From an uncultured Bacilli bacterium (lineage in GTDB: Bacteria; Bacillota_I; Bacilli_A; RF39; UBA660), in NCBI GenBank assembly GCA_934098515.1, contig CAKOOK010000004.1:3483-67482 (forward strand): a stretch of 64,000 nt of DNA, in the 5' to 3' direction. Shown here piece after piece: positions 21,182-63,728 of the stretch (position 1 is the first letter of the stretch; each line of letters starts with the position of its first letter). A program made the position numbers and the translations under genes. Under the pieces are notes generated by a model. The model saw only the letters and a list, made by a program, of their open reading frames with translations. It was not told the origin of the DNA and searched no databases.

Positions 21182-22726
21182 ATGGATAAACAATTAAAAA
21201 AAATATATTTATATATAGGAATATTTGTTGCAATAATCTTTATTGGAGCAACATATGCATTCTTTACTGCCGGAATGAGTTCTGAAACAAGCACCACAGT
21301 AAGAGCAGATGCCGGAACAATGAAAATAACTTATGATGGAGGAAAAGATATAAATCTAGCTGGAATATATCCTAAAGATGATGTATGGGCTACAAAAACT
21401 ATAACTGTAACTGGTAATAATACAACTGATGCACAGATGTATTATAAGTTAACTTTAATAGTAGACTCAAATACATTTAAAACAGATGATCCATTACAAT
21501 ATGAATTAGTAAGTACTAATACAAGTACTAATGGAGAAATAATCCCAAATATATCTAAAAAAGATATAACTGGAACATCTATTGAACTAGGTAGTGGACA
21601 CTTTGTAAAAGCAAATAATGCAAGTCATACATATCTATTAAAGATATATTATCCTAAAAAGGCAACTAGTCAAAATGCAAATCAAGGAGCAGCATTTAGT
21701 GCTCATGTAGAGATAACAAGTGCTAAAGCACCTAAAACTAATGGGAAATTATCAGAATTAGTATTATATAATAATGAAGTTAAAGCTCCAATTACAACAC
21801 CAGGAGCAGCAATATCTACTGCTGATGAAGCACTTTTAGCAAGTGCAGAAGATGATTATGGAACTTCTTATTATTTTAGAGGCGCTGTAACAAATAACTA
21901 TGTAGAATTTGCTAATAAATGCTGGAGAATAGTTAGAGTTGGAGGAGATGGCTCTGTAAAACTTATCTTACACAATGATAATACTGCAGGAGCTGCTAAT
22001 CCTTGTGATGCTGCAAATAATAGTACTAGTGCAGCATTTGCTAGATACAATGGAACAACATATATAAGTGCATTTAATACAAATTATAATGATAATGCAT
22101 ATGTTGGATTTAAGTATGGCACTGCTGGAGCTAGTGATTATGCAACTACTCATGCTAACATAAATAATAGTACAATACTAACTAATTTAGAAACTTGGTA
22201 TGATAATAATCTAAAAATATATGAAAGCGTAATAGATGATAATGTATGGTGTAATGATAAAACAAATGTAACAGATACAACACATGATCCTTGGGGTTGG
22301 TCACCAAATGGTTTGGGTTATGCTAAGAATCTAACTTATTATGGTGCTACACAAAGATTAGTAAGTGCAGGTGCTAGTGCTGGTGGCACGGGTCCAAGTT
22401 TAAAATGTAATGGAGAATTAAGTAAAATAAATTCAAAAATAGGATTAATAACTGCTGATGAATTAGCATATGCAGGATATGCTTATAGTCAAGTTAATAC
22501 TACAACATATTTACAAGAAAATGCTACAGATACTTATTGGTGGTCTTTGTCTCCTATCGGCTTCTATGGCAGCCGTGCTCGCGTTTGGCTCGTTGTCGGC
22601 AGCCTTGGCCGCTTCGATCGCAGCGACGTGGTTGGCACTGACGCGGTTCGTCCTTCGATTTCTCTTAAGTCGACGACCAACGTAACCGGTGAAGGAACCA
22701 GTGATAAACCTTTTGTTGTAGATTAA
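21182..22726 (+). CDS. secreted/surface protein paralog 1 with C-terminal hypervariable lectin-like module (candidate DGR target)
   Basis: ATG 21182 behind the aggaga RBS. N-terminal signal/anchor IGIFVAIIFIGATYAFFTAG...SSETS resembles TasA/camelysin-type signals. The C-terminal ~315 aa is paralogous to 38562..39854 and ends ...YWWSLSP-[31 variable aa]-RPSISLKSTTNVTG. Confidence 0.8.
   Translation: MDKQLKKIYLYIGIFVAIIFIGATYAFFTAGMSSETSTTVRADAGTMKITYDGGKDINLAGIYPKDDVWATKTITVTGNNTTDAQMYYKLTLIVDSNTFKTDDPLQYELVSTNTSTNGEIIPNISKKDITGTSIELGSGHFVKANNASHTYLLKIYYPKKATSQNANQGAAFSAHVEITSAKAPKTNGKLSELVLYNNEVKAPITTPGAAISTADEALLASAEDDYGTSYYFRGAVTNNYVEFANKCWRIVRVGGDGSVKLILHNDNTAGAANPCDAANNSTSAAFARYNGTTYISAFNTNYNDNAYVGFKYGTAGASDYATTHANINNSTILTNLETWYDNNLKIYESVIDDNVWCNDKTNVTDTTHDPWGWSPNGLGYAKNLTYYGATQRLVSAGASAGGTGPSLKCNGELSKINSKIGLITADELAYAGYAYSQVNTTTYLQENATDTYWWSLSPIGFYGSRARVWLVVGSLGRFDRSDVVGTDAVRPSISLKSTTNVTGEGTSDKPFVVD
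22556..22648 (+). other. hypervariable, GC-rich, A-depleted 93-nt core (VR-like) of paralog 1
   Basis: Hand count: 59/93 G+C and 9 A. 41/93 mismatches to 39684..39776, then 42 identical nt (22649..22690). Confidence 0.75.
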
Positions 22727-23969: not shown

Positions 23970-24033
23970 ATAATCTTCTTTTTTTTGTGAGTTACATGTG
24001 ATATACTAATTGTATATGATAGGGGAGGCTAGT

Positions 24034-24345
24034 ATGAGTAAGAAAGGGCAAGCACTTATTGAGTTTATTTTGATTATGCCGGTTATGGTTTATCTTATAT
24101 TGGTGTTTGTGGATTTTTCTTTGATACTAAGTACTAAGAATAAGTTAGAGAATAATGTTAGTAATTTAGTTATGGAGTATAAGGAAACGGGCTTATGCCC
24201 TGAAGGGGCTTTGTGTGAATCTAGTGATAAGTATGAAAAGATTGCTCTTAGAGAGAAATATGTTCCTAAAACTCCTGGTCTAAGTTTAATCCTTAAAGAA
24301 CCTTATTATATTAAAAGTGAAAGAGTGGTTTTAAAGGATGAATAA
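24034..24345 (+). CDS. TadE-like pseudopilin/pilus assembly protein
   Basis: N-terminus KKGQALIEFILIMPVMVYLIL (G/xxxxEF-type TadE motif). First gene of the Tad-like operon; extended -10 tgatatact upstream. Confidence 0.6.
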   Translation: MSKKGQALIEFILIMPVMVYLILVFVDFSLILSTKNKLENNVSNLVMEYKETGLCPEGALCESSDKYEKIALREKYVPKTPGLSLILKEPYYIKSERVVLKDE

Positions 24346-24661
24346 AAAAGCTCAGGCACTTGCACTTTTTATTACGATAATTCCAGTTATATTCATTGTT
24401 ATTATCTTTGTTTATGAGTCTGGTGTATTTGTAAATGAGAAAAATCGTGTTCTAGGTGTTCTTGATAGTACAGTTGAAGAAGCTAAGAGATATGATTTAA
24501 GTGATGATGAGATAATAGATTTATTAAATAAAAATAGTATTCGTAAAGAAGATATAGAGATAGTTAATCATGAAGGGATAAAGACAATTATTATTAAAGT
24601 TAAATATCCGGTAATAAATAAAACTTATGAGATAAAAACAAAGATGAAGGAGGCAGAATAA
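24338..24661 (+). CDS. small membrane-anchored protein of Tad-like operon (TadE/TadF-like, tentative)
   Basis: N-terminal hydrophobic segment KKAQALALFITIIPVIFIVIIFV; overlapping start. Confidence 0.4.
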   Translation: MNKKAQALALFITIIPVIFIVIIFVYESGVFVNEKNRVLGVLDSTVEEAKRYDLSDDEIIDLLNKNSIRKEDIEIVNHEGIKTIIIKVKYPVINKTYEIKTKMKEAE

Positions 24662-25404
24662 TGGCTAGAGGAACAAGTATAGCGGTCTTTGGTGCTAAGG
24701 GTGGAACTGGTAAGACTATTTTTGCACTTAATTTGGCTGGTGCTATGTCTAAGCTTGATAAGAAATGTTTGATTATTGATGCTGATCTTTATTCAGGACA
24801 AATAGATTGTGCTCTTAATAAGAAACCAAAAAAAGATATATATAATTTTGCAGATGATTATAGTAATAATCGTTATAAAGATTTTGAAGATTATGTTACG
24901 GTTTATAATAAAAATATTTCTTTTATTGGGGCTCCTACTGATCCTAGAAGAGCTAATAAGATTGATCCTAAGTATTTAAGTATAATTTTAGATAAGGCTC
25001 TTTTTAAGTATGATTTTGTTATATTTGATATGTCACATATATTAAATGAGGTTAATGTTAATATTTTGGATATGGTTGATAAGATTTTACTTGTTACGAC
25101 TAATGATCCACTAGATTTAAAGAATTTAAAGACAGTTCTAAGTTTATTTAAGGATAGTAGTATAAATAAGTATAAGGTTATTTTAAATGATTCAGTGGCA
25201 AATAATCGTGATTATTTTTCTTTATATGATTTAAAGGTGATTATTGATAATAATATTGATTATATTATAAGTAATAAGTTTTATGTACCTAATATGGATG
25301 CTTATGTGTTTGATGGGAAGATTTTTACTCTTGAGGCTAGAAAGTATCCTGATGAGGATGTGTTTAATTTGATTATTAAGGATGCAGGTGGTAAAGATGA
25401 GTAA
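24661..25404 (+). CDS. CpaE/TadZ-like ParA/MinD-family ATPase
   Basis: Deviant Walker A FGAKGGTGKT; position upstream of the CpaF-like ATPase. Confidence 0.75.
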   Translation: MARGTSIAVFGAKGGTGKTIFALNLAGAMSKLDKKCLIIDADLYSGQIDCALNKKPKKDIYNFADDYSNNRYKDFEDYVTVYNKNISFIGAPTDPRRANKIDPKYLSIILDKALFKYDFVIFDMSHILNEVNVNILDMVDKILLVTTNDPLDLKNLKTVLSLFKDSSINKYKVILNDSVANNRDYFSLYDLKVIIDNNIDYIISNKFYVPNMDAYVFDGKIFTLEARKYPDEDVFNLIIKDAGGKDE

Positions 25405-26716
25405 AAGCTTAACTGAGAATTTTGATTTTAAGCCAATATATAATGCTGAGGATAGTATAGTTAGTGATTATGAGGTATTTAAAGATAAGAAGTTACTTGA
25501 TAATCTTAGAAAGATAATTATTGAGGATTTGATTGATAAGGAGATACCTACTAATAAGGAGTTAAGTGAGTTTGTTAATGAGGAGATTGATAGGTGTTTA
25601 GAGGGATATGATTTAACTAATTTGGAGAGAAATCATATATTTAATTTGATTGAATCAGAGATAAATGGTTATGGACCGATTACTGAGCTTTTAAATGATC
25701 CTAATGTTACAGAGATTATGGTTAATGGACCTAGTGAGGTTTATGTAGAGATTGATGGTAAGTTAGTTAAGGATACTAGTGTTTCTTTTATTAATGATAA
25801 TCACATAGAGCGTACTATTCAAAGGCTTATTCAGCCTCTAGGAAGAACTATTGATAGTTCTAATCCTATGGTAGATTCTAGGCTTAAGGATGGGTCAAGA
25901 ATTAATGCGGTATTGCCTCCTTTAAGTGTAAATGGGCCGGTTATTACTATACGTAAGTTTAAGCATAATATGACTAAGGTAGAGGATTTGCTTAGAGTTG
26001 GTACTATGACTACTGATATGGCTAAATTTTTAGAGGCGTGTGTTAGAGGAAAACTTAATATTATTGTTTGTGGTGGAACTGGTTCTGGTAAGACGACTCT
26101 TTTAAATATTATAAGTGGTTTTATTGGAAATGATGAACGTATTATTACAATAGAGGATGCTGCTGAGTTAAAGTTAGAACAGGAACATGTTATATCGCTT
26201 GAAACAAGAACTGCTAATTATAATAAGGGGAGTGTTGTTACTGTTAGAGATTTGGTTATTAATGCTCTTCGTATGAGGCCAGATAGAATAATTGTTGGAG
26301 AATGTCGTGGTAAAGAGGCTTTTGATATGTTACAAGCAATGAATACTGGACATGATGGATCACTTACTACGTTACATGCTAATAGTCCAGAAGATGCTTT
26401 AAATAGATTAGAGACTTTAGTGCTTATGAGTGGTATTGATATTCCAATTAAAGCAGTTAGGGAATATATTGAAAATGCAATAAATATTGTTGTAAATATT
26501 CAAAGAATGCATGATGGTAAAAGAAAAATAACTTCTATATGTGAAGTTGATGGGTTTGATAAAGATATGATTAAACTTATTCCTATATTTGAGTTTGTTC
26601 AAATGGGACTTACAGATACTGGTGAGGAAAGAGGAGAGTTTACTTGTAAGAATAAAAAACCTAATGTTGCTAAATTACTTAAATCAAGGGGAATTAAATT
26701 AGATATGCTTAAATAG
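25397..26716 (+). CDS. tadA: CpaF/TadA-type secretion ATPase (type II/IV secretion NTPase family)
   Basis: Walker [10 protein letters not shown], Asp box ITIEDAAEL, Walker [13 protein letters not shown], His box [13 protein letters not shown]. Confidence 0.9.
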
Positions 26717-38561: not shown

Positions 38562-39854
38562 ATGAACAAAAAACTTCCGATAATTTCTCTTTTTTTTATG
38601 AGTATAGTTAGCATAATGTATTGGGCATTTAAACCAAAGGACGAATTATATGAGGCTAAATGGAATGCGCCAGACACAACTTTAGCAATTACGATCAATG
38701 GTGAAATTAGTACAACATTTCCAACAACAGATATGTACACTGGAACAGTAGAATGTACTACAGGAACAGGTAAAGTAGAATGGAATGGTACTAAATGGAT
38801 TCTTACAACAAGTGGAATAACTAAAGGAAGCACTAAATGCAATGTTATTTTTAAGCAAACTTTTAATGGTGTAATATTAGCAAAGAATGAAGTAAAGACT
38901 CCGTTTACAACACCAGGAGCAGCAGTATCTACTGCAAGTGAAGCATTACTTGCAGCTGCAGAAGATGATTATGGTACATCTTATTACTTTAGAGGTGCTG
39001 TAACAAATAACTATGTAGAGTTTGCTAATAAATGCTGGAGAATAGTAAGAGTTAGTGGAGATGGTTCAGTAAAACTTATCTTACATAATGACAATACAAC
39101 TGGAGTTGCTAATCCTTGTGATGCTGCAAATAATAGTGCTAGTGCAGCATTTGCAAGATACTCTGGTGAAACATATACAAGTGCATTTAACACAATTGTA
39201 AATGATAATGCTTATGTAGGATTTAAGTATGGAACACCAGGTTCAAATACATATGAAGCTACACATGCAAATACCAATAAAAGTACAATACTAACTAATT
39301 TAGAAGTTTGGTATAATAAGAATCTTAAAACATATGAAAAAGTAATAGCTGATACTGTATGGTGTAATGATAAAACAAATGTGACTGATACATCTTTTGA
39401 CCCATGGAATTATAGTAGTTATAGTAATGTAACTGGTTTAGGATATGCTAAAAATATAACATATTATGGTGCTACCCAAAGACTAGTAAGTAAAAGTAAT
39501 AGTGCTGGAGGCACTGGCCCAAGTTTGAAATGTAATGGAGAATTAAGTAAAATAAATTCAAAGGTAGGCTTAATAACAGCAGATGAACTAGCATTAGCAG
39601 GATATGCTTATGATTATTTTGAAAATACTACACCATATTTACAAGAAAATGCTACAGATGATTATTGGTGGTCCTTGTCGCCTGACAACTTCTTTGGTGG
39701 CTACGCTTACGTTTGGTGCGTTGGCATCAGATATGGCGTCTTCAGAGTCGAATACGTGAACCACGCCTACGGGCTTCGTCCTTCGATTTCTCTTAAGTCG
39801 ACGACCAACGTAACCGGTGATGGAACCAGTGAAAATCCATACGTAGTAAAATAG
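38562..39854 (+). CDS. secreted/surface protein paralog 2 with C-terminal hypervariable lectin-like module (candidate DGR target)
   Basis: N-terminal signal/anchor LPIISLFFMSIVSIMYWAF. From ~aa 110 it is paralogous to 21182..22726 and ends ...YWWSLSP-[31 variable aa]-RPSISLKSTTNVTG. Confidence 0.8.
   Translation: MNKKLPIISLFFMSIVSIMYWAFKPKDELYEAKWNAPDTTLAITINGEISTTFPTTDMYTGTVECTTGTGKVEWNGTKWILTTSGITKGSTKCNVIFKQTFNGVILAKNEVKTPFTTPGAAVSTASEALLAAAEDDYGTSYYFRGAVTNNYVEFANKCWRIVRVSGDGSVKLILHNDNTTGVANPCDAANNSASAAFARYSGETYTSAFNTIVNDNAYVGFKYGTPGSNTYEATHANTNKSTILTNLEVWYNKNLKTYEKVIADTVWCNDKTNVTDTSFDPWNYSSYSNVTGLGYAKNITYYGATQRLVSKSNSAGGTGPSLKCNGELSKINSKVGLITADELALAGYAYDYFENTTPYLQENATDDYWWSLSPDNFFGGYAYVWCVGIRYGVFRVEYVNHAYGLRPSISLKSTTNVTGDGTSENPYVVK
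39684..39776 (+). other. hypervariable 93-nt core (VR-like) of paralog 2
   Basis: Hand count: 48/93 G+C and 18 A. Rich in NAC codons (gac aac tac tac ... aac cac tac). Followed by a 42-nt block identical to paralog 1 (39777..39818). Confidence 0.75.
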
Positions 39855-39917: not shown

Positions 39918-40826
39918 ATGGAGGTTATTAATTTATCTAGTAGGTCTTTTAAAGGGTTAAGGACTCTTGAATTACCTAATATTGTATATAATACTGAGGG
40001 TAAGATATATGTTTATGAGGATAAAGATAAGTGGAATAAGAGGATGCATTTAGTTAAGAGGCTATATATTAATAGTGGTCCTATATTTAGTAATAAGCTT
40101 GCGACTATAAATTCTTTGGTTGATTATGAAGAACAGATTGATATGCCTGAACTTGTTTATCCTGAAAAGTTACTTACTGTAGGTAGAGAAATAGTTGGGT
40201 TTACTATGCCTTATGTTCCATCTACTAATTTAAAAGAAATATTAACTAGTTCTAAGACTCCTGCTGAAGTTAAGATTAAGTATTTAAAGGATATTGGTAC
40301 TATTTTAGAGAAGATGGAAGAGGTTCGTAAGTATGCTGATCTTGAGGATTTTTATTTAAATGATTTACATGAGGGAAATTTTATAGTAGATGAAGAAGGT
40401 ACTTTAAGAGTAATTGATTTAGATTCTTGTAAGATTGCTGGTAATATGCCATTTTGTTCTAAGTATTTATCTAGAATGAATCCTTCTATTAGTAATCTTC
40501 CTGGTAAATATAAGTTAAGTAATTTTAGATGTTCTGGAGATATTATTCCTAATAAAGATACTGATTTGTATTGTTATATAATTACAGTTTTAAATACACT
40601 TTTTGGTAGAGAAACACATAGATTACCTCTTGAGACTTTTTATGATTATTTAGAGTATTTAAGAAGGATTGGTGTATCTACTGAACTTATTGATATAATT
40701 TCTGATATTTATTCAAATAAACCTAATACTAATCCTATGGAATTATTGGATGGGTTAGAGCCAGTATTTTATAAGTGTCATGAAAGTGTGTTTAAGAGTT
40801 TGACGAAGCAAAGAAGATGCCAATAG
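39918..40826 (+). CDS. protein-kinase-like fold protein (eukaryotic-like/APH-type catalytic loop)
   Basis: LNDLHEGNFIVDEEGTLRVIDLDS resembles the HxDLxxxN catalytic loop plus DxD/DFG metal site. ATG behind aaggggg; hairpin terminator at the stop. Confidence 0.55.
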   Translation: MEVINLSSRSFKGLRTLELPNIVYNTEGKIYVYEDKDKWNKRMHLVKRLYINSGPIFSNKLATINSLVDYEEQIDMPELVYPEKLLTVGREIVGFTMPYVPSTNLKEILTSSKTPAEVKIKYLKDIGTILEKMEEVRKYADLEDFYLNDLHEGNFIVDEEGTLRVIDLDSCKIAGNMPFCSKYLSRMNPSISNLPGKYKLSNFRCSGDIIPNKDTDLYCYIITVLNTLFGRETHRLPLETFYDYLEYLRRIGVSTELIDIISDIYSNKPNTNPMELLDGLEPVFYKCHESVFKSLTKQRRCQ

Positions 40827-60921: not shown

Positions 60922-62054
60922 GAATATTAGTCAATGATGTGAAACAAAAAAATATAAAATAACTTAGTAAATAACTGAGTTGTTTTTTTATAATTGTAAT
61001 AATTTATTTCTCATTTCTATTGGTGATAAAAAATTTAAAACCTGCATAGGAATATTATTTGATCTTTTTAAATACAATTTTCCTTGATATCTTAAATCTT
61101 CTAATGAGTAAAATGATAAAAAAGAATAAAATCGTTCATTATCATTTCTGTGGCTTCTTTCGACTTTGCCATTATGTCTAGGTGTGCGAGGTCTAATTTT
61201 ATGATGATAAATGTTGTTAGCCAAACAATACTTGTCCATTGGATGAATAACTTTAACTTTTTCTTGATTATAAGTGAATTCTATACCATTATCAGTCTGA
61301 ATTTCTTCTGGTTTATATTTGTAATAATCAATACATTTTTTTATAAAGTCAACTGTGCTTTCTGGTGTGTGTTCAGTATACCAATATAAAAACCTTTCAC
61401 GTGATGCCTCGTCGATGCATGTATATTGATAAAATCTTATATCGTCAGGTAAATTATTAGTTTTACATTCGTTAGGAACGTATTTAACATCTATTTGCCA
61501 TTTTATTCCAAGCTGTTTTGGAGTTTCATAATGTTTTATTTGTTTTTTTGAAGTACCACTAATTAATACTTGATTATAAAATCCGATTCTTCTTAATAGT
61601 CTATACAAACTAACAATATGTCTTGTATATCCTTTATTTCTTTTTAATTTAATCCATAATTCACATAAGGTTATATGAGGATTCCTTTTTATAAAAGCTT
61701 TTATCCATTTTACTTCTTCATCAGTATGAGCATTTGGATGTTTCGATTTTGGCCTATGAGAACCATCCATTAATGATTCTGGTGTACCATTATATTTTTT
61801 ATTCCACCTCCATAAAGAAGTTCTTGAAATATGATATTTTCTACATACATATTCAATTGAATTTCCGTTTCTATATGTTTCTACAGCATGAAGTCTTGTT
61901 TTTAATTCATGGGGTAGATATCTCACATTATTTTGTGTTATACTTGTCATGACTTAAGTCCTTTCTTATATTTATTGATTTTGGTTCAACTCAATTATAT
62001 AAGACTTAAGTCATTTTTTATATAATAATGTTTCACATCTATTGTATTACAACA
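60922..62054 (-). mobile_element. IS481-like insertion sequence (~1.1 kb, single DDE transposase); exact ends uncertain by ~10-15 nt
   Basis: Imperfect terminal IRs tcaatgatgtgaaaca (60931..60946) and tgtttcacatctattg (62028..62044). Possible 5-bp TSD tatta (60925..60929 / 62045..62049). A 26-bp direct repeat lies outside the element on both sides. Confidence 0.75.
60988..61950 (-). CDS. DDE (rve/integrase-core) transposase with N-terminal HTH, IS481-family-like
   Basis: HTH YVCRKYHISRTSLWRWNKKY. DDE triad context WQIDVKY, IQTDNGIEF, HNGKVERSHRN. Confidence 0.85.
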   Translation of the reverse strand: MTSITQNNVRYLPHELKTRLHAVETYRNGNSIEYVCRKYHISRTSLWRWNKKYNGTPESLMDGSHRPKSKHPNAHTDEEVKWIKAFIKRNPHITLCELWIKLKRNKGYTRHIVSLYRLLRRIGFYNQVLISGTSKKQIKHYETPKQLGIKWQIDVKYVPNECKTNNLPDDIRFYQYTCIDEASRERFLYWYTEHTPESTVDFIKKCIDYYKYKPEEIQTDNGIEFTYNQEKVKVIHPMDKYCLANNIYHHKIRPRTPRHNGKVERSHRNDNERFYSFLSFYSLEDLRYQGKLYLKRSNNIPMQVLNFLSPIEMRNKLLQL

Positions 62055-62987: not shown

Positions 62988-63728
62988 ATGGAAATATATA
63001 AGATTAAAACTGAATTAATTGAACAAATGAAATCGAAATTTAAAGGTAATATTTATCATTTTTCTCAAGTGAATTTTGCCTATAATTCAAATAAGATTGA
63101 AGGCAGCCATTTAACAGAAGAAGAAACTGAAGCGATTTTTGAAACAAATTCATTTATTCCTAAAGCCGATGAAGCTGTAAAACTAGATGATTTAATTGAA
63201 ACTATAAATCATTTTAGATTATTTGATTATGCTTTAAATATAATTGATGACGAACTTAGTAAAGAAAATATCATTAAAATGAATATGATATTAAAGAGAA
63301 ATACTACTGATGAAATAAATCCAAGATATAATGTTGGTGGCTTTAAAATTGTTCCTAATAGGATTGGTTTAATTAATGTTGTTGAAACTTCTAATCCTGA
63401 TAATGTAGAAAAAGATATTGACGAGTTATTAATGTGGTACAAAGATATTAAAAATATTACTTTAGAAGATATTATTGAATTTCATGTAAGATTTGAAAAA
63501 ATTCATCCTTTTGCGGATGGCAATGGAAGAGTAGGCAGAATGCTAATGTTTAAAGAATGCCTTAAAAATAATATTATGCCTTTTATTGTATTAGATAGAG
63601 ATAAAGCATTTTATATGAGAGGCTTAAAAGAATATAATAACGATAAAATGTTTTTAATTGATACAATAAAAAACGAACAAGATATTTTTGAAAATGTTTG
63701 TAATGAATTATTAAATTTTGAAATATAA
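62988..63728 (+). CDS. Fic/DOC family protein
   Basis: Fic motif HPFADGNGRVGR. Confidence 0.9.
   Translation: MEIYKIKTELIEQMKSKFKGNIYHFSQVNFAYNSNKIEGSHLTEEETEAIFETNSFIPKADEAVKLDDLIETINHFRLFDYALNIIDDELSKENIIKMNMILKRNTTDEINPRYNVGGFKIVPNRIGLINVVETSNPDNVEKDIDELLMWYKDIKNITLEDIIEFHVRFEKIHPFADGNGRVGRMLMFKECLKNNIMPFIVLDRDKAFYMRGLKEYNNDKMFLIDTIKNEQDIFENVCNELLNFEI

Follow-up and report, generated by a model that had tools for sequence, protein, structure and literature searches.

Two paralogous genes on the chromosome of an uncultured RF39 bacterium end in a short, highly variable segment. This raises two questions: whether the segment was written by a diversity-generating retroelement (DGR), a known hypermutation system of bacteria, and whether it is still being rewritten. 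The window (the whole stretch of 64,000 nt that was analysed) is a chromosome segment of 28% G+C with the housekeeping genes rplS, mutS, nusB, xseA/B, hisS and gatCAB. Within it, paralog 2 is preceded by xseB and followed by an uncharacterised 302-aa ORF (39918-40826). Paralog 1 is located 17 kb further upstream, between rplS and the pyrimidine-nucleoside phosphorylase gene (pdp). The following features are referred to below:

38562..39854, plus strand: target gene of paralog 2, 430 aa, its product having a hydrophobic anchor at the N terminus and a DUF6273-like domain at the C terminus (from the ORF and its translation)
21182..22726, plus strand: gene of paralog 1, 514 aa from the ATG at 21182, with its VR at 22538..22656
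39483..39800, plus strand: Pfam DUF6273 (PF19789) stretch with the VR at its C-terminal end (C-terminal 184-aa fragment, 27.9 bits against a cut-off of 23.5)
39666..39784, plus strand: variable region (VR) of 119 nt, homologous to the template repeat (TR), at the 3' end of paralog 2, aligned without gaps to the TRs of loci L004, L009, L020, L024 and L026
39684..39770, plus strand: mutable core, bounded by the outermost codons that read AAC/AAT in the TR family (placed at 39684..39776 in an earlier note on this DNA)
39726..39774, plus strand: span of six private non-adenine substitutions (39726, 39727, 39731, 39746, 39752 and 39774)
39771..39799, plus strand: IMH-like 3' end, reading GGGCTTCGTCCTTCGATTTCTCTTAAG, with the TR counterpart GGGGTTCGTCCTTATTTTCTCTTAAAT
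39775..39820, plus strand: block of 46 nt identical to 22647..22692 of paralog 1 in pairwise alignment

Both loci are represented in other assemblies. The exact paralog 2 protein was found on 16 contigs and the exact 514-aa paralog 1 protein on 8, and scaffold_450 (89,462 bp) of ENA ERZ28613926 MERR22-1_SAMEA4765817-S002 is 100% identical to the window. Both paralogs also occur together on an NCBI/ENA contig of 198,977 bp. The 302-aa ORF at 39918-40826 was considered as a degenerate reverse transcriptase (RT) and rejected, having neither a Pfam match nor any similarity to RT. Following paralog 1 and pdp, a TadE-like gene, a 107-aa ORF, a CbiA/ParA-type ATPase gene and a further ORF (24010-26716) resemble a Tad/Flp-pilus-like cluster adjoining a DGR-type surface protein gene. 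Near the window end, an rve-family transposase gene on the minus strand (60988-61950) is followed by a ThiF-like gene and then a Fic-domain gene (62988-63728).

The VR of paralog 2 stands out by composition, with 53% G+C against 32% in the rest of the gene and 28% in the window. Its scaffold pattern has exactly two matches in the window and none in 100 shuffles. Much of what the earlier note had described could be reproduced: the 93-nt core at 39684..39776 holds 18 A against 9 in paralog 1 (22556..22648), and NAC/NAT codons dominate in paralog 2. The 3' block shared by the paralogs is identical as stated, although it is 46 nt (39775..39820) and not 42 nt long, and the encoded residues differ at 22 rather than 23 of 31 positions. 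The suspicion that the VR begins upstream of the core is borne out as well, the TR homology starting about 18 nt before the first variable codon. The upstream differences that had been offered as further template adenines are of another kind. Two of them (tcc/tct and tcg/tct) lie inside the TR homology at sites where the TRs carry C/T and T/G, never A, and are ordinary polymorphisms; the third (gat/act) lies upstream of the homology start at 39666.

Both paralog proteins carry an N-terminal hydrophobic helix, and the paralog 2 protein is membrane-anchored and presumably surface-exposed. The full-length paralog 2 protein gave no Pfam match at E <= 0.01. A precomputed PF19789 match exists for some homologs, and annotation pipelines may miss the DUF6273 domain in this family. 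AlphaFold2 reached a pLDDT of 40 for the full-length protein with its close homologs, and 92.6 (pTM 0.87) for residues 219-430 with 79 diverse representatives from a 50%-identity library. In the model of residues 219-430, the VR (model residues 157-187) forms a beta-hairpin, a loop and a third strand, along which invariant and variable residues alternate. Foldseek comparison of this model with the PDB found no match at E < 0.001, several C-type lectin-like domains appearing only among the weak matches (E = 2-9), and PDB profile searches gave no match. The best BFVD matches of the model were DUF6273 phage proteins (E = 0.02-0.09), and a CLec-like fold has been reported for DUF6273 (PMC10743442). 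The C-terminal domain family comprises 2,639 representatives at 50% identity (E <= 1e-3), and some proteins carry the domain in many tandem copies, with 15 matched stretches in P0121 (4905 aa).

The window lacks a cassette. Searches for a TR, by repeats and by the scaffold pattern with up to 3 mismatches, matched only the two VRs in the window; no YxDD reverse-transcriptase context was found in it, and tblastn of the window with RT, Avd, MutS-like (MSL) and Mbeg1-like proteins gave no match. Nor did the 10 kb past the window end hold a cassette, TR or RT. That is, the template and RT that the earlier note had supposed are absent from the window and from 10 kb beyond its end, and the TR family is found in related genomes. 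The serS-polC interval, the usual cassette site in these relatives, lies outside the window. Deletion of a cassette next to paralog 1 was considered and rejected, since the cassette of the relatives is flanked by serS and polC rather than by rplS and pdp.

Scanning species-representative genomes with the scaffold pattern, we found seven matching loci. At one of them (L009, on a 6-kb contig), a VR ends a paralog-1-like gene, and 643 nt later a second copy follows in which all variable codons are AAC or AAT. This TR is succeeded by a 120-aa MutS_I-like ORF, a 117-aa bAvd-like ORF (a weak match, its 17.7 bits falling short of the Pfam cut-off, 40) and an RVT_1 reverse transcriptase of 328 aa that bears a YMDD motif. 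The same cassette is present at L004 in "uncultured Tenericutes bacterium UMGS1021". Scanning metagenomes for the TR core added 10 further TRs, so that six TR variants were sampled overall, five of them full-length. The gene order is constant in these related gut RF39/"Tenericutes"-like genomes: long-form target, TR, MutS-like gene, Avd and RT. Where flanks are present, serS lies upstream and polC-rluA downstream, which places the cassette on the chromosome. The TR core had no matches in viral contigs, and Rfam had none in the window and two cassette loci. Lookups of more divergent RTs (P0292 and P0293) yielded a further TR end of the GGGGTTCGTCC type and otherwise only short contigs. The 3' flank of the TR reads TTCATGGCAATGTCTATTAGGGAACAAGACC.

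The MutS domain I-like ORF of 120 aa lies between TR and avd-like gene in every cassette (L009:2062-2424; L023:7512-7874; L020:12057-12419, minus strand), and in the RT homolog P0340 (508 aa) RVT_1 and MutS_I are fused in one protein. The non-coding stretch of ~840 nt that separates the stop codon of the target from the start of the MSL gene (L009:1237-2061; L023:6685-7511) is 94% identical among four cassettes whose target genes are only about 85% alike. It contains the TR mid-way and a terminator-like hairpin (GGAAGCACGCAAATGCGTGCTTTTT) at its end, has no Rfam match, and may represent a long structured DGR RNA. Downstream of the RT (region L009:3883-5847; L020:7590-9025, minus strand), a 339-aa Mbeg1-like protein is always encoded, and the toxin-antitoxin module after it varies by cassette (ToxN in L009, AbiEi/AbiEii in L020 and L024).

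Measured against these templates, 30 of 36 TR-adenine sites are different between the two paralogs, as opposed to 13 of the 82 sites at which none of the four compared TR variants has an adenine (Fisher p = 2.9e-12). This contrast shows that the VRs are of DGR origin. With TRs of AAC/AAT codons beside Avd and an RVT_1 reverse transcriptase in relatives, the origin that had been proposed from the window stands. Compared with the L004-type TR, paralog 2 has 22 of 35 TR adenines changed and 13 kept, and paralog 1 keeps 8, so that paralog 2 retains the greater number, in line with the earlier note. Four of its 18 A's (39726, 39731, 39746 and 39752) stand where none of the four TR variants compared has an A, and would be drift products instead of kept template adenines. 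The scaffold is not exactly common to both paralogs, as had been thought, given the 13 differing never-A sites. Nor can the template be cleanly reconstructed from the two copies: placing A at every difference creates 13 false adenines, including AAA codons, which occur in no observed TR.

The same alignments speak to the second question. Aligned to any one of the five full-length TR variants, paralog 2 shows 10-15 non-adenine mismatches, and at six sites it is mismatched to all six variants (39726 G>A, 39727 G>T, 39731 C>A, 39746 C>A, 39752 C>A and 39774 G>C). These sites are never A in TRs, and clean VRs have no such substitutions. Four of the changes run from G/C to A/T and one more from G to A, a pattern that would fit ordinary drift in a 28% G+C genome. 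Paralog 1 carries four private non-adenine substitutions. At the protein level, three residues of paralog 2 (I15, E23 and L31) fall outside the TR-/NNC-encodable set, and among the 98 family members whose VR has 31 residues, 59 stay entirely within the TR-encodable set. Leu at position 31 (CTT) recurs in 12 of 84 distinct family VRs, so that some TR lineage may encode L31; the private mismatches would then number 5, not 6. Between the paralogs, 16% of the non-adenine sites differ, about as in the flanks, which indicates that no common template has homogenised them recently. The view that two copies of one template had recently been written here is not upheld by this divergence.

The 3' end of the VR is altered as well. 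VR and TR share GG(C/G/T)GT(C/T)CG(T/C)CCTT and diverge after CCTT, the VR continuing with CGATTTCTCTTAAG and the TR with ATTTTCTCTTAAAT. The G+C-rich 3' segment reads GGGCTTCGTCC in paralog 2, GCGGTTCGTCC in paralog 1 and GGGGTTCGTCC in the closest TR variant (L020, L031). Each paralog is mismatched by a C within this homing segment, at 39774 in paralog 2 and at 22644 in paralog 1. The G+C-rich 3' part is exact in the four VR/TR pairs that adjoin a cassette, but not in paralog 2, and the single change may block homing at these sites. The conserved 46-nt 3' block, folded as single-stranded DNA, showed no notable hairpin (z = -0.54). An active target should have a TR in its own genome from which it differs only at adenines; the window holds no such TR, and paralog 2 does not show this relation to the TRs of relatives.

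Comparison of strains gave a corresponding result. The 196 nt at 39659-39854 recur exactly in seven loci from at least five samples, among them two MERR22-1 subjects, ERZ27287438 and two Hadza samples; the identity of the flanks is 98.9-100%. In the 90% cluster of paralog 2, all three sequences (18 contigs) have the same VR and 1-10 residue differences elsewhere; in the cluster of paralog 1, the VR is the same in six of six sequences (17 contigs) that differ at up to 42 residues elsewhere. No ortholog that combines this backbone with a different VR came up in the protein search, the next match being 79% identical. The orthologs on record are thus identical in the VR while differing elsewhere, the outcome that the earlier note had named as speaking against its proposal, and ongoing diversification of the locus is not what we see. 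A separate observation concerns a patch of paralog 2 (39167-39326), in which 23 nt / 10 aa differences are concentrated between strains that are 99% identical overall. Paralog 1 has a comparable dense patch at aa 185-197, and these patches look like mosaic gene conversion between the paralogs.

Elsewhere in the family the element is at work. Four cassette-adjacent VR/TR pairs have 16-21 changes at TR adenines and 0 elsewhere over 118 nt. Two VRs that lie apart from the L004 cassette, L007 (on another contig of the same assembly) and L001 (on a 1.09-Mb contig of another assembly), differ from the L004 TR at adenines only, which indicates that the element works in trans on distant paralogs. Of the four remote VRs in the UMGS1021 assembly, three (L003, L006 and L008) have 5-7 non-adenine mismatches to the L004 TR, and only L007 is clean. 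Decayed or retired VRs seem to be common in the family, unless this metagenome-assembled genome mixes strains with different TRs. Paralog 2 has homologs in more than 7,391 clusters at 90% identity. Among the best 120 of these, proteins with 100% identity outside the VR have only 48-61% of VR residues in common, and VR identity is below 0.7 in 70% of the pairs with a backbone identity of 98-100%. Family-wide, 10-14 residue types occur at the AAC-derived positions, all of them NNC-encodable, and the scaffold residues are nearly invariant.

We therefore hold with good confidence that 39666-39784 is a genuine DGR VR by descent, which was formerly overwritten by cDNA, is no longer rewritten and has become fixed in the sampled strains. 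The foremost competing explanation, which we consider unlikely, is that paralog 2 is still a live remote target, rewritten rarely or held by strong selection, its mismatches stemming from a lineage-specific TR elsewhere in the genome. The UMGS1021 assembly does offer a case of trans action on a remote target (L007, compared with the L004 TR). Lineage-specific TRs do exist, as is evident from GGG/GTT-type bases that both window VRs share with the L020/L031 TR variant, and 21% of family pairs with 98-100% backbone identity share their VR. A cassette may lie beyond the window, typically between serS and polC; a divergent TR of its own could explain more of the mismatches, the TR variants sampled being six; and strong selection could in principle keep VRs identical despite an active element. 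However, no single TR fits both VRs of the window, since 13 never-A sites differ and AAA codons would be needed that are known from none of the observed TRs. In addition, no VR variant occurs in the 18 contigs of paralog 2 or the 17 of paralog 1 despite their backbone differences, and each paralog is mismatched in the G+C-rich 3' segment that is exact in every clean VR/TR pair. That the region owes nothing to a DGR, being a G+C-rich segment in which the paralogs diverged through gene conversion or through ordinary mutation with diversifying selection, is hardly credible: the window holds no template and some paralog differences sit at third codon positions, but TRs with AAC/AAT exactly at the variable codons adjoin an RT in relatives, the differences are strongly enriched at TR-adenine sites, and the residues at variable positions are confined to the NNC-encodable set across the family.

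The reading as a VR that has ceased to be rewritten implies the following course of events. cDNA from an AAC-rich TR would in the past have overwritten 39666-39784, the writer being an adenine-mutagenic reverse transcriptase of the MutS-like and Avd type. Cassettes of the putative source type still reside between serS and polC in RF39/"Tenericutes"-like relatives and can serve remote paralogs in trans. Paralog 2 would be such a remote target, with no cassette in view, at which rewriting has ceased. After the last rewrite it would have acquired ordinary point mutations, mostly GC-to-AT, including one within the G+C-rich 3' homing segment. Its VR is probably a retired or orphan copy of a known DGR system, and as the cause of stasis we infer either the loss of the cassette from the species or the loss of homing competence at the site. 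We tentatively raise the possibility that targets are retired singly by a point mutation in the homing segment (39774; 22644) with the element continuing to diversify other paralogs, or else that the whole cassette was lost, and that two surface proteins of fixed specificity have in this way been conserved across Hadza and other human cohorts. If this were true, the paralog family would be a natural record of DGR-generated variants worth keeping.

These small-genome gut RF39/"Tenericutes"-like bacteria carry a very large family of DGR-diversified surface proteins (>7,000 clusters at 90% identity), in which live and frozen VRs coexist; the two copies in the window are clear frozen examples. As orphan VRs without a TR nearby, such copies can help to calibrate DGR-detection pipelines, and they allow one to ask which variants become fixed.

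Several known systems offer themselves for comparison. In the Bordetella phage BPP-1, VR1 of Mtd is diversified by IMH-directed retrohoming, with an IMH/IMH* arrangement at the 3' ends of VR and TR. As in BPP-1, the VR of paralog 2 lies at the 3' end of its gene and has a G+C-rich stretch in common with the TR, after which the two diverge in a way that resembles IMH versus IMH*. On the other hand, neither sequence nor Foldseek searches gave a significant match to Mtd or to anything in the PDB, and a marked downstream hairpin is missing. DGRs with MutS-like (MSL) and Avd accessory genes correspond to Architecture D of Wu et al. 2018 (PMC5758913), to which the Legionella DGR also belongs. The relatives agree with it in carrying a TR, a 120-aa MutS_I-like ORF, a weak bAvd-like ORF and an RT, with adenine-only VR/TR differences. 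They depart from it in that their TR comes before the MSL and avd genes, and the window departs further, being without any cassette component and having only the two target paralogs.

Remote, non-adjacent targets have been described for Treponema denticola (PMC4891356) and Lineage 4 DGRs (PMC5758913). In the present family, too, paralogous targets are scattered on the chromosome, and a relative has at least one target on a separate contig that agrees with the TR save at adenines. In contrast to those targets, paralog 2 cannot be assigned to a TR by A-to-N changes only, and it is invariant between strains. DUF6273-type DGR targets are known from gut phages, as tentaclins (PMC10743442) and as targets of Faecalibacterium prophages (PMC11792537). 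Paralog 2 resembles them in its match to DUF6273, the position of the VR at the C-terminal end and the beta-hairpin of the VR in the model, whereas it differs in being chromosomal and cellular, located amid housekeeping genes, with an N-terminal membrane anchor. No new mechanism comes to light; the architecture is the known one of a DGR with MSL and Avd, remote targets and a DUF6273 target domain.
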